From positions 1-39,533 of IMG/VR virus record IMGVR_UViG_2547132281_000008: 39,533 bases of DNA. One strand, written 5' to 3'. How positions within the stretch are numbered: position 1 is the stretch's first letter; every line of letters starts with the position of its first letter. A program made the position numbers. This DNA comes from a virus (lineage: Duplodnaviria; Heunggongvirae; Uroviricota; Caudoviricetes). Positions 1 through 3,000 of this stretch are shown here, piece by piece.

Positions 1-3000
1 GTGCTTACCGATACAAAATTAAAAAACCTCAAGCCACAGGACAAACTGTACAAAGTTTCCGATCGTGACGGGCTGTATGTAGCTGTGCTTACGTCAGGTA
101 CGGTCTCGTTTCGCTATGACTACCGTATCAACGGTCGCCGCGAAACACTGGTAATCGGGCAGTATGGGCGTGACGGTATCAGCCTGGCAGAAGCGCGAGA
201 AGAACTGATTGCTGCAAAGAAGCTGCTTAAAGCAGGCCAGTCGCCGGCTGCGGCTAAACGTGACGGTATCAAAAAGATTCGTGGTGCCGAGACGTTTGCG
301 GTACATACCGACAGTTATATGAAACACGTCATCCTGGCTGAAAGTACCCGCGCAATGAAGCAGGCGGTGATCGACCGTGACATACTTCCGGTTCTTGGCA
401 ACAAAATGATGGCTGAAATTACCACATCGATGGTTCGTGATTTGTGTGACCGGATTGTCGAACGCGGTGGTCGGGCAACAGCAGTACAGGCCAGGGAGAT
501 CATCAGCAGCGTATACCGTCACGCCAATGACCGTGGTCATGGTTTGTTTAATCCTGCTGCTGACATTAAACCTTCGTCTATCGCCATATTTAAACCACGA
601 GAGCGAACACTGACACCAGAAGAAATTGGTCTGTTCTTCCGCACGCTGGATGCCATTGGTGCTATGGGCACTATGAAAATGGCTTTAAAGCTGGTGCTTA
701 TCACTATGGTTCGTAAAGGCGAATTCACCAATGCAACGTGGGATGAAATAGATTTTAAAAAATGGACATGGACAATTCCTTCAGACCGCATGAAGGGAAG
801 CCGGGCGCATGTTATTTACCTGCCTAAACAGGCTCAGGATATATTGGTCGGGTTGCAGATGTGCGCTGGTGGAAGTGAATATCTGGTTCCTGGTCGTTAC
901 AATTTCAGGAAGCCATTATCTAATGCCGCGCTGAACTCTCTGATCGACAGAACGGTGAAAATAATAAATGAAGATGGTGAGCATATTCAGGACTTCACCG
1001 TACACGATATGCGCCGTACAGCCAGTACGTTGTTGCATGAGGCTGGTTATCCTTCAGACTGGATTGAAAAGGCTCTGGCACATGAGCAGAAAGGTGTGCG
1101 CGCCGTATATAACAAAGCGGAATACGCCAGACAGCGCGCCTACATGTTGCAGCAGTGGTCCGATATGATTGATTCCTGGATTAACGGGGAGCATACGGAT
1201 CTGATTCCGTTCTCCCCGTCGAAGTTTGAGAAGTGGATGGCGGGGGAATAACGTTTAATAGTTCTGCTGATTTTCTTCCATCTCTGCTTCTGCTGCCAGT
1301 GATTCAATTTTGTTTTCGAATATTGCTGACAGTGTTGCAAATTCAGCATCAGTGACAGCGGGAATTGGAACAAACCTGATCCCGCTGTGTGCAAGCATGT
1401 TTGCAGTTTCAAGGCATTTCCTTAAATCTGCTGGTGATGCCCTGTTCATGCTGCACGCTCCCGCCCCTGGTTGTCTGTTGGTGACAGCGGAGCATTGCTG
1501 AATGCATTTGTTAATCTGGCAATATCCAACGCGTATCCAGGGTGTAGTTGCACTGCCGGGTCTTCGCACTGATTACCCCAAACATCGAAGCCATGAGACG
1601 ACTGGCGGGCGAACAGTTCAATGCGAGAAACATCGCCTAACAATTGCACAAGTTTTTCACGAACGACATCTGGTTTTCTTGAATGCTCAAGCCGCGGTGC
1701 GGTAAATGACTGAACGATCCCTGCATTAATGCGCGTAGGTAGTTTTCCCTTTACCGCAAACAGGCAATCTTCACTATTGGCGCGAGTCATGTGTCCCATA
1801 CCCATAACCAGTTTATCTGGTTGTCGACTACCACATTTTATCCACGTGAAGCCCTTCATGGTCATCAGACGGAATCCCCAGGCTTCAACAACTTTTAGTG
1901 CTTCGAGTGGTTGTGTTGGCACCCACCACATGGCCAACAGACAGTTTTCATCGGCCAAATCCCACACAGGAAGGCGGCAGATATCCAGCACACTCATAAC
2001 CGGATATTTAAAACCGGCACCGCGATTACCATCTGCGGCTTTGTCCCGGTATACCCAGGGTGGATCCGCATAGATTAGCGTGTATTTCTTAGTCATAAAC
2101 CACCCCGCAACATCCTATGCCGCTATAGTCGCCACGGCGAAGGCCGTTACCTTTTGTGATACATTGGTCCCTGCGAACCGCGATCCTTGCACGCTCAACA
2201 TCACCAGAAGCAACATCCATACACTGAAGCCAAAGGTGAGCGGCAATGCGGAACTGTCCTTTTTTCTCTCTTTCAATTGCGCGTTTTTCGAACTCTATCG
2301 CCGCAGGAGTAACGGCGACAATCTTTGACGGACTGCGCATTGAAACCTTGTTCATGTGATATTTTTCAAGTCGGCTTAACTTTCTCACTTAATCCAACCC
2401 TCTCTGAAAATTAATGCCAGCAGATAAAGCCATGCTGAAACAGAGGCCAGGAATAAGTACCATCCTGACCATTTGCTCCAGTGCCTTAGCAGCACACTCA
2501 TGCAGCGTTGCTCACAGGACGATATACACGTTGCTGAACAGGAGGCTTTTTACCCTGGAACTCTGCCGGGCTTGCTGCCTGACGTTCATCAAGCCAACGC
2601 TCAACTTCATCACGGTTCCATGCGCAGCGTTTGTCAGTGATATACCAGCGTTTAGGAAATTCCCCTGCGCGCTCCATGCGGTCGATAGTGCTCCATGACA
2701 GTGGCACCACCGCCAGGAGTTCCTTCTTACCTAATGCACCTTTCATAAATACCTCTCTTGGTTGCAGTGCGGCGCGCGTGGCGCCGCGGTGGTGGTTACA
2801 TAGATGTTTCGTTTAATTCTTCCCGACGAACGCTGTAAACGTCGGTGGCTTTTGCCAGCAGTTCGTCATCATCTGAAAGTTTTTGTGCAATGTATTTGTA
2901 AGCTTTATCCAGTTCGAAGACAGTGCTGTAATTCATCGCTGCGCTGGTAAAGGCCATCAGCATTTCTTCTGGATCACGGCTATCCGCTTTACGCGTTTGC

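Follow-up and report, generated by a model that had tools for sequence, protein, structure and literature searches.

A methyltransferase gene lying beside the integrase gene of a prophage, between two small open reading frames (ORFs) that overlap it on both sides, raises a simple question: what does the enzyme modify, and does it need its small neighbours to do so? We addressed this question in a tailed phage sequence (Caudoviricetes) of 39,533 nucleotides (nt), positions 1 to 39,533 of the IMG/VR record IMGVR_UViG_2547132281_000008, which is hereafter called the window over its whole length. The gene encodes a predicted N6-adenine methyltransferase of the MT-A70 (beta-class) family, and we favour, with moderate confidence, the reading that this enzyme is a self-sufficient, Dam-like DNA methyltransferase acting on GATC.

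An MT-A70 methyltransferase without restriction endonuclease

The gene occupies positions 1446-2096 of the minus strand, starts with ATG and encodes 216 amino acids (aa). Its product matches the Pfam family MT-A70 (PF05063) with an E-value of 3.1e-22 and 79.8 bits for a cut-off of 23.9, residues 5-176 being aligned with positions 1-172 of the 172 positions of the profile. It also matches PHROG 359 (E 2e-120) and the PADLOC Type II methyltransferase model MTase_II (E 1.4e-77). Motif IV (DPPW) is found at residues 11-14, with P12 and W14 invariant and D11 and P13 nearly invariant among 38 homologues, and a conserved ELFAR...W-GN block is found at residues 160-175. The location of DPPW on the N-terminal side of the S-adenosylmethionine (SAM)-binding motif corresponds to the beta order. 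The AlphaFold2 model of the protein (predicted local distance difference test 78, predicted template modelling score 0.77, with a C-terminal tail of low confidence) adopts the Rossmann-like fold of MT-A70 enzymes. The best matches found by Foldseek in the PDB are METTL3 (E 8e-14) and the N6-methyladenine DNA enzyme MTA1 from Tetrahymena (root-mean-square deviation of 2.9 Å), with template modelling scores of about 0.66-0.72. The catalytic fold and the DPPW motif are thus common to the window enzyme and to the METTL3-METTL14 and ciliate MTA1-MTA9-p1-p2 complexes. Both complexes, however, depend on an MT-A70 paralogue devoid of catalytic activity and on accessory subunits that bind nucleic acids. 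No second MT-A70 paralogue was found: a single methyltransferase is annotated in the 98%-identical phage phiV10, and none of the ORFs specific to the window matches MT-A70.

The conserved part of the enzyme is its core (residues 1-187), the tail (residues ~184-216) being a mosaic. Relatives share DNA homology with the gene only up to about codon 183, and protein similarity to the related enzyme of Shiga toxin (Stx) phages ends at residue 187. The amino acid identity with this Stx-phage enzyme (83%) exceeds the nucleotide identity between the genes (about 78%), which was counted as a sign of selection. The segment NAPLSPTDNQG of the tail (1446-1549, codons ~184-216) closely resembles the C-terminus (NAPLAPTDNQG) of a separate ORF of 54 aa located downstream of the methyltransferase gene in a Kluyvera prophage (3591-3755 of locus L085), and this resemblance suggests that the tail arose by in-frame fusion after a deletion.

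This gene is nothing new in kind. It corresponds to PhiV10p33, already annotated as "DNA methyltransferase" in phiV10 (NC_007804), and positions 1-3000 of the window are 98.6% identical in nucleotide sequence to the phiV10 region that holds it. The gene lies in the same five-gene context in the two sequences, and the differences between them, none of substance, are the annotation of the ORF upstream of the methyltransferase gene, which is 11 codons shorter in phiV10 (88 aa), and that of RecE-RecT as one fused coding sequence (CDS). In other E. coli prophages, the names given by RefSeq/PGAP to the methyltransferase and to the products of its upstream and downstream neighbours are MT-A70 family methyltransferase, PerC family transcriptional regulator and DUF1382 family protein. 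The feature is therefore a routine, correctly annotatable and already known prophage gene. The module was found in 560 of 5426 complete E. coli genomes (~10%); clusters of homologous proteins are 98-99% identical, and those at at least 81% identity contain thousands of sequences. The window itself is an integrated phiV10-like (Uetakevirus, epsilon15-like) E. coli prophage located between guaA and yfgI: its final 1.2 kb carries the E. coli core genes yfgI and yfgH, found in 5421 of the 5426 complete genomes, and guaA adjoins the integrase gene in equivalent prophages.

The methyltransferase has no cognate restriction endonuclease and does not form a Type II restriction-modification system. The phiV10 annotation includes no restriction enzyme and the window-specific ORFs that phiV10 lacks include no nuclease, the segments absent from phiV10 encoding Ea22-like, dATP/dGTP pyrophosphohydrolase-DUF551, acyltransferase and host proteins. 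Furthermore, a PADLOC search on nine ORFs of the operon, from the RecT and exonuclease genes to the DUF1382 ORF, returned the methyltransferase as the sole defence match. The original prediction had pointed to an MT-A70 methyltransferase gene between two small ORFs overlapping it by 8 and 4 nt, beside the integrase gene and devoid of an adjacent restriction endonuclease gene; coordinates and overlaps were confirmed from the sequence and the orphan status holds as well. The anti-restriction or regulatory role that it proposed is among the accepted possibilities for this family of prophage orphans. It is conceivable that the methyltransferase and its neighbours make up a cryptic restriction-modification or defence cassette, but this is extremely improbable and already contradicted for the window. 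PADLOC does assign the enzyme to Type II methyltransferase models, and the coupled upstream gene of some relatives seems to encode a PD-(D/E)XK nuclease (loci L088 and L091, weak PDDEXK_5 match), an HNH nuclease (L089) or a DndB/DGQHR protein (L090 and L130). However, the RecE-like exonuclease is the sole nuclease encoded by the window, and the two neighbours of the methyltransferase belong to the PerC and Orf63 families.

Characterized relatives and the predicted GATC target

The closest characterized relative is the Stx-phage enzyme (M.EcoGV / M.EcoPA8orf6770P), which is 83% identical to the window enzyme over residues 1-187. In a neighbour-joining tree of MT-A70 enzymes, built without support values, the two enzymes are sisters, and protein p32 from Serratia phage BZS1 and a Tn1549-like enzyme are outgroups. 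M.EcoGV, which is near-identical to the enzyme of phage phiPA8, was reported to methylate GATC in vivo when over-expressed (Fang 2012, via PMC10810198), and a methylome paper on O111 entered it as a GATC enzyme borne by an Stx2 prophage. PhiBZS1_p32 (42% identity with the window enzyme), expressed alone in a dam- host, rendered DNA resistant to MboI and sensitive to DpnI, i.e., it is GATC-specific, and the Tn1549 enzyme M.EfaBMDam was termed Dam-like, with GATC cited as its specificity (PMC7556043). A homologue of the latter from pMG2200 shares 45% identity with the window enzyme. Since the sister enzyme and both outgroups were reported as GATC-specific or Dam-like, GATC is the parsimonious prediction for the target of the window enzyme.

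These relatives differ in their relationship with the window. PhiBZS1_p32, HK639 gp35 and M.EfaBMDam belong to the same MT-A70 family, harbour the DPPW motif and are encoded close to an integrase gene or on a mobile element, but the BZS1, HK639 and Tn1549 enzymes are only 42-50% identical to the window enzyme and those of BZS1 and HK639 carry an insertion of 24 residues after the TWVK motif. In the short-tailed Stx2a phages (TL-2011c, phiPA8 and the O104:H4 phage), an Orf63/DUF1382 gene also follows the methyltransferase gene, in an accessory region located between the early genes and xis/int. Unlike in the window, the enzyme of these phages has a different C-terminal tail, and the upstream gene encodes PNB-2 (143 aa, weak match with HTH_11) and is preceded by its own terminator. 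We equated gp12 and gp13 of TL-2011c with PNB-2 and gp5 of phiPA8 on the basis of the published terminator sequence, which has an exact match just upstream of gp12; the translation of the primer covering the DPPW region, TLIYA(D>A)PP(W>A)TFRD, corresponds to the TL-2011c sequence and provides a second tie to phiPA8 gp5. Besides, HK639 gp37 (annotated as "regulator", 142 aa; 1912-2340 of L126), encoded two genes upstream of the MT-A70 gene, is a clear homologue of PNB-2 (55% identity, E 4e-54). Therefore, the linkage between PNB-2 and MT-A70 reaches the subclade of the GATC-specific BZS1 member.

Several points weigh against a self-sufficient GATC methyltransferase. The substrates reported for the Stx2a-phage enzyme conflict: GATC DNA in vivo for one, 16S rRNA in the presence of PNB-2 for the other (PMC10810198). 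The purified phiPA8 enzyme, an 83% relative, was alone near background on dam- DNA in vitro and preferred 16S rRNA with PNB-2 (PMC10810198). The GATC result for M.EcoGV comes from over-expression, which can cause off-target methylation, and the closest relative tested experimentally is only 83% identical. It is hard to see what a second GATC methylase would bring in a Dam+ host, and GATC sites are neither clustered nor unusual in the prophage (151 sites, observed/expected ratio of 0.78) and thus bring no independent genomic support. Finally, the promoter assignment described below is based solely on a consensus scan.

The first of these points leads to another explanation, in which the enzyme would mainly methylate 16S rRNA and thereby tune translation and prophage induction, as phiPA8 gp5, one of its neighbours, most plausibly the PerC-like one, playing the targeting role of PNB-2. 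We consider this explanation unlikely. It is consistent with the 83% identity to the phiPA8-type enzyme, which forms with the product of the upstream gene, PNB-2, a 1:1 holoenzyme that prefers 16S rRNA and which raises spontaneous induction (PMC10810198), and with the fact that the closest solved structure, METTL3, is that of an RNA enzyme. However, the window harbours no homologue of PNB-2, and the C-terminal tail linked to PNB-2 is replaced in the window enzyme: similarity stops at residue 187, and the ~27 C-terminal residues of the enzymes from Shiga toxin-producing E. coli, which the phiPA8 authors link to PNB-2, are lacking. Furthermore, the family is also encoded by conjugative elements (Tn1549-like, beside genes of type IV secretion systems), which fits better with a protection of DNA.

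The enzyme could also be a DNA adenine methyltransferase of different or relaxed specificity that would provide a broad anti-restriction cover, like M.EcoGII or phage enzymes of the Hia5 type. Orphan methyltransferases of prophages and plasmids are indeed often promiscuous (PMC5778455, PMC4659465), 31 substitutions separate the window enzyme from the Stx-phage one within residues 1-187, and the model has low confidence in the predicted recognition/gate loop (residues 99-106). However, M.EcoGII/GI (349 aa, DPPY) and the alpha-class enzymes of Drozdz et al. have other architectures or belong to other families, the variable loop of the window enzyme holds the residues of the family consensus (GMGHMTRAN), and all the tested members of the MT-A70 clade were reported as GATC-specific or Dam-like, though they are just 41-45% identical across subclades. 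A specificity other than GATC thus seems about as improbable as an action on rRNA. Identity with M.EcoGIX, M.EcoGII/GI or M.EcoMIV was rejected: apart from the 349-aa DPPY enzyme just mentioned, they comprise a plasmid-borne enzyme and a member of the D12 class. Two other candidate links with GATC were also rejected. An avoidance or an enrichment of GATC in the prophage is not apparent, the observed/expected ratio given above being unremarkable. A link between Dam methylation and packaging, as in P1-like phages, was considered as the large terminase of phiV10 is annotated as PacB-like, but no GATC cluster that could mark a methylation-dependent pac site was found (maximum of four sites per 100 base pairs, P = 0.57 compared to random).

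Flanking ORFs and their replacement in related elements

The ORF located upstream of the methyltransferase gene (2089-2388, minus strand, GTG start, 99 aa) encodes a small helical PerC/ANR-like protein and overlaps the methyltransferase start by 8 nt, ATGACTAA (2089-2096). The downstream ORF (1255-1449, minus strand, 64 aa), a homologue of lambda Orf63 (DUF1382), overlaps the methyltransferase stop by 4 nt, ATGA (1446-1449). A mechanical ORF list extends this downstream ORF to a GTG at 1569; its start was taken as the ATG at 1449 because the Pfam domain DUF1382 spans residues 1-60 of the 64-aa form. The stop of the convergent integrase gene falls 3 nt short of the stop of the DUF1382 ORF. The same style of chaining is found throughout the operon, whose genes all lie on the minus strand. 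The genes of the PD-(D/E)XK exonuclease (3734-4555, Pfam DUF3799) and of RecT (2796-3737), both found in the ORF list or in the PGAP annotation of the equivalent prophage, share ATGA (3734-3737). The gene of an AlpA-family excisionase/regulator (2498-2746, Pfam PF05930, PHROG 66) overlaps by 4 nt (2498-2501) the ORF of a 38-aa membrane protein (2385-2501, PHROG 17484 with E 4.7e-27, counterpart of PhiV10p35), which in turn shares GTGA (2385-2388) with the PerC-like ORF. At least 15 further gene pairs of the window overlap by 1-19 nt. The overlaps with the methyltransferase gene are thus ordinary operon packing and are not peculiar to this gene.

The product of the upstream ORF matches the Pfam family PerC (PF06069) over residues 35-80 (30.1 bits for a cut-off of 22.6) and PHROG 868 (E 1.8e-61); the match with the NCBIfam ANR family concerns the same residues and is below the cut-off. 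The 99-aa form was preferred over the 88-aa form of phiV10 because homologues with as little as ~60% identity conserve the additional N-terminal residues and PGAP calls the same form. PerC is known for activation of the locus of enterocyte effacement, and ANR proteins for binding AraC-type regulators. Like the PerC/Pch regulators of enteropathogenic and enterohaemorrhagic E. coli and the ANR (Aar-type) regulators, to which it is related by profile, the protein is small and helical, but it possesses in addition a conserved N-terminal helix and a conserved C-terminal hairpin (GVVYD). Its AlphaFold2 model, made of four helices and a short hairpin, has no significant match in the PDB and no helix-turn-helix (HTH), and only resembles helical bundles or MIT/TPR-like folds at E > 0.1. 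The protein shows no similarity to PNB-2 by BLASTP or hhalign, and a hidden Markov model of PNB-2 finds no match upstream of the methyltransferase gene in the window. This dissimilarity in sequence and profile, together with a model that is a helical bundle as opposed to the winged HTH predicted for PNB-2, argues against the transfer of the rRNA-targeting role of PNB-2 to the PerC-like protein.

The downstream ORF product matches DUF1382 (PF07131) with an E-value of 1.8e-30 and 105 bits for a cut-off of 27 and, over residues 2-62, the PDB entry 8DSB (E 8.5e-13). This entry corresponds to lambda Orf63, a dimeric, non-essential and pro-lytic protein of the exo-xis region, without known partner (PMC10869804). 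Like ORF 1255-1449, the lambda gene encodes a DUF1382 protein of ~60 aa and is located between the recombination genes and int. To our knowledge, lambda has no MT-A70 gene, nor any methyltransferase gene beside Orf63.

The neighbours of the methyltransferase gene vary widely from one element to another. We compared 39 loci, corresponding to 37 loci from different bacterial species, the window and phage TL-2011c. An upstream ORF overlaps the methyltransferase start by 1-14 nt in 31 of them, and a downstream ORF overlaps its stop in the same number of loci (31/39). When clustered, these immediate neighbours yield 23 groups on the upstream side and 27 on the downstream side, which are mutually unrelated and include NinB, DUF1317, a PD-(D/E)XK-like protein, DndB, an HNH nuclease and fusions of a winged HTH with PerC. 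Overlaps of 1, 4 or 8 nt were again nearly universal in 232 viral contigs (29 methyltransferase clusters). Neighbours also change between near-identical prophages. In a sample of 30 rows evenly spaced among the 560 E. coli genomes carrying the module, a Ser/Thr phosphatase gene replaces the Orf63 homologue in eight rows, with the same overlap of 4 nt with the methyltransferase stop, and some E. coli copies have a DGQHR/DndB-like gene inserted between the PerC-like ORF and the methyltransferase gene. Cassettes are thus exchanged on either side of the MT-A70 gene, an overlap of 1-8 nt being kept each time; apart from the DGQHR/DndB-like gene, the upstream insertions include PD-(D/E)XK-like, HNH, NinB and DUF1317 genes (1561-2220 of L129, 2391-3458 of L130, and the upstream ORFs of L088-L091 and L083-L090).

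Taken as a whole, the family assignments and these replacements indicate that the flanking ORFs are separate accessory genes rather than genes encoding subunits of the enzyme. The enzyme most likely acts alone, judging from the window, which encodes neither a second MT-A70 protein nor PNB-2, and from the neighbours, which near-identical E. coli prophages have exchanged for other genes or separated from it by an insertion. The original prediction had raised the possibility that the small partners serve as subunits for specificity or regulation. This proposal is not supported, in view of their membership of the Orf63 and PerC families, their replacement or interruption in near-identical prophages and the lack of resemblance between the PerC-like protein and PNB-2. 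It was nevertheless not unreasonable, since PNB-2 of phiPA8 does form a 1:1 holoenzyme with an 83%-identical enzyme (PMC10810198).

One association deserves separate consideration. A PerC-like ORF is located directly upstream of the methyltransferase gene in eight of 42 loci and within ~1.3 kb of it in seven more; among the 29 methyltransferase clusters from viral contigs, it is adjacent in four, nearby in three and absent in 22. PerC/ANR-like ORFs are found immediately upstream in methyltransferase subclades that are only ~42% identical (window, BZS1, L099-L105, L121, L211 and L222). This recurrence in several subclades speaks in favour of a neighbour-assisted action on 16S rRNA. However, BZS1, like the window, carries a PerC/ANR-like ORF directly upstream of its methyltransferase gene (hhalign probability of 71%, E 3.8e-5), and yet p32 expressed alone is GATC-specific. 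The PerC/ANR-like protein could also be a genuine facultative partner of MT-A70 enzymes, with a role like that of PNB-2 (docking, altering substrate or timing). The phiV10-like, Stx and HK639/BZS1-like phages would then have lost different parts of an ancestral PNB-2-like/PerC-ANR-like/MT-A70 module. Besides the spread of PerC/ANR-like ORFs over distant subclades, the PNB-2 homologue encoded upstream of the HK639 methyltransferase gene is compatible with this idea, which we nevertheless consider very unlikely. Two fusions were found in the survey: a rare PerC::MT-A70 fusion of 297 aa (cluster P0125, three sequences) and a PerC::DUF1382 fusion from which the methyltransferase is deleted (P0115; 4001-4309 of L123). 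They were rejected as Rosetta-stone evidence of interaction, both being too rare and P0115 showing that the neighbours persist without the methyltransferase.

Expression, proposed role and prophage context

We return to the favoured reading, that of a Dam-like enzyme acting alone, and consider when it would be produced. A pattern-based consensus scan of positions 1100-6400 found a terminator-like hairpin after the repressor gene (6184-6165, minus strand) and, at 6113-6085, the sole sigma-70-like promoter match of the minus strand, which is the candidate early-left promoter. The scan found no minus-strand terminator between this match and the methyltransferase gene, and no RNA gene, repeat or terminator was found within 1100-3000. 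The RecT-AlpA gap, the only intergenic gap of the operon, contains a GC-only hairpin of 7 base pairs (GCGGCGC-loop-GCGCCGC, 2769-2787, minus strand), which is devoid of a T-run and whose folding energy is not significantly lower than that of shuffled sequences (z = -1.8). With a single promoter-like site after the repressor gene and no terminator beyond it, the methyltransferase gene would be a distal early-left gene, probably largely silent in the lysogen. Such silence agrees with reports on other prophage methyltransferases (PMC5778455, PMC4659465). A comparison of the methylomes of a lysogen and of a cured strain would be uninformative, because the operon is repressor-controlled and the likely target, GATC, is already methylated by the host Dam.

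The methyltransferase gene would thus come last but one in a densely packed early-left operon, transcribed from near the repressor gene towards the integrase gene. The enzyme would be produced mainly after induction or infection, its translation beginning inside the end of the preceding ORF. It most likely acts alone, probably as a homodimer like other beta-class enzymes, and is predicted to methylate the adenine of double-stranded GATC sites with SAM as donor. The likely advantage is that fast-replicating phage DNA would exit the cell fully methylated at GATC and be shielded from restriction of the MboI/DpnII type in the next host; phage development may be timed differently as well. The flanking ORFs would be separate accessory genes encoding a PerC/ANR-like helical regulator and a pro-lytic protein like lambda Orf63. 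The analysis establishes the identity, family, fold and synteny of the gene, the absence of a nuclease and the interchangeability of the neighbours, and the GATC specificity, the timing of expression, the homodimeric state and the biological benefit are predictions drawn from it.

The remainder of the prophage shows additional features. The P4-type tyrosine integrase (Pfam, 416 aa) is encoded on the plus strand at 1-1251, convergently with the operon, and marks the guaA-side end of the prophage. RecT (ATG at 3737) and the PD-(D/E)XK exonuclease (3734-4555) are separate ORFs in the window, as in E. coli prophages annotated by PGAP, instead of the single "RecE-RecT fusion" CDS of 1761 nt of the RefSeq phiV10 record; this discrepancy probably stems from a difference in reading frame, or from a problem of annotation or sequencing in one of the records. 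The early-left operon also includes an ORF of 344 aa (4859-5893, minus strand), rich in Glu, Ala and Arg, which looks like a coiled coil, has no match in Pfam, NCBIfam or PADLOC and is missing from phiV10, where an ORF of 50 aa stands. Inside the prophage, a tRNA-Arg gene (anticodon TCT; 15420-15496, minus strand) is flanked by the terminase region on one side and the portal region on the other. Region 32850-36309, which encodes the C-terminal part of the tailspike and an acyltransferase-3 (35206-36309, plus strand), is unlike phiV10, in which oac is encoded by the other strand; this divergence suggests that the O-antigen specificity or the seroconversion module is not the same. Over the whole window, CTAG is strongly under-represented (seven sites compared to ~31 expected under a Markov model). 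The depletion of GGCC is moderate (82 compared to 143 expected), and GATC is close to expectation.

The interest of this known gene lies in its relatives and in its frequency. The recurrent, though far from universal, presence of PerC/ANR-like ORFs upstream of distant MT-A70 subclades is a thread worth keeping, with a small chance that these proteins modulate the enzyme. The exact module is present in some 10% of complete E. coli genomes, and the literature on the closest relative of its enzyme is contradictory. The phiV10-type copy, devoid of PNB-2 and endowed with a different tail, would therefore provide a clean natural control of what the catalytic core does alone and of the dependence of the induction effect on PNB-2.

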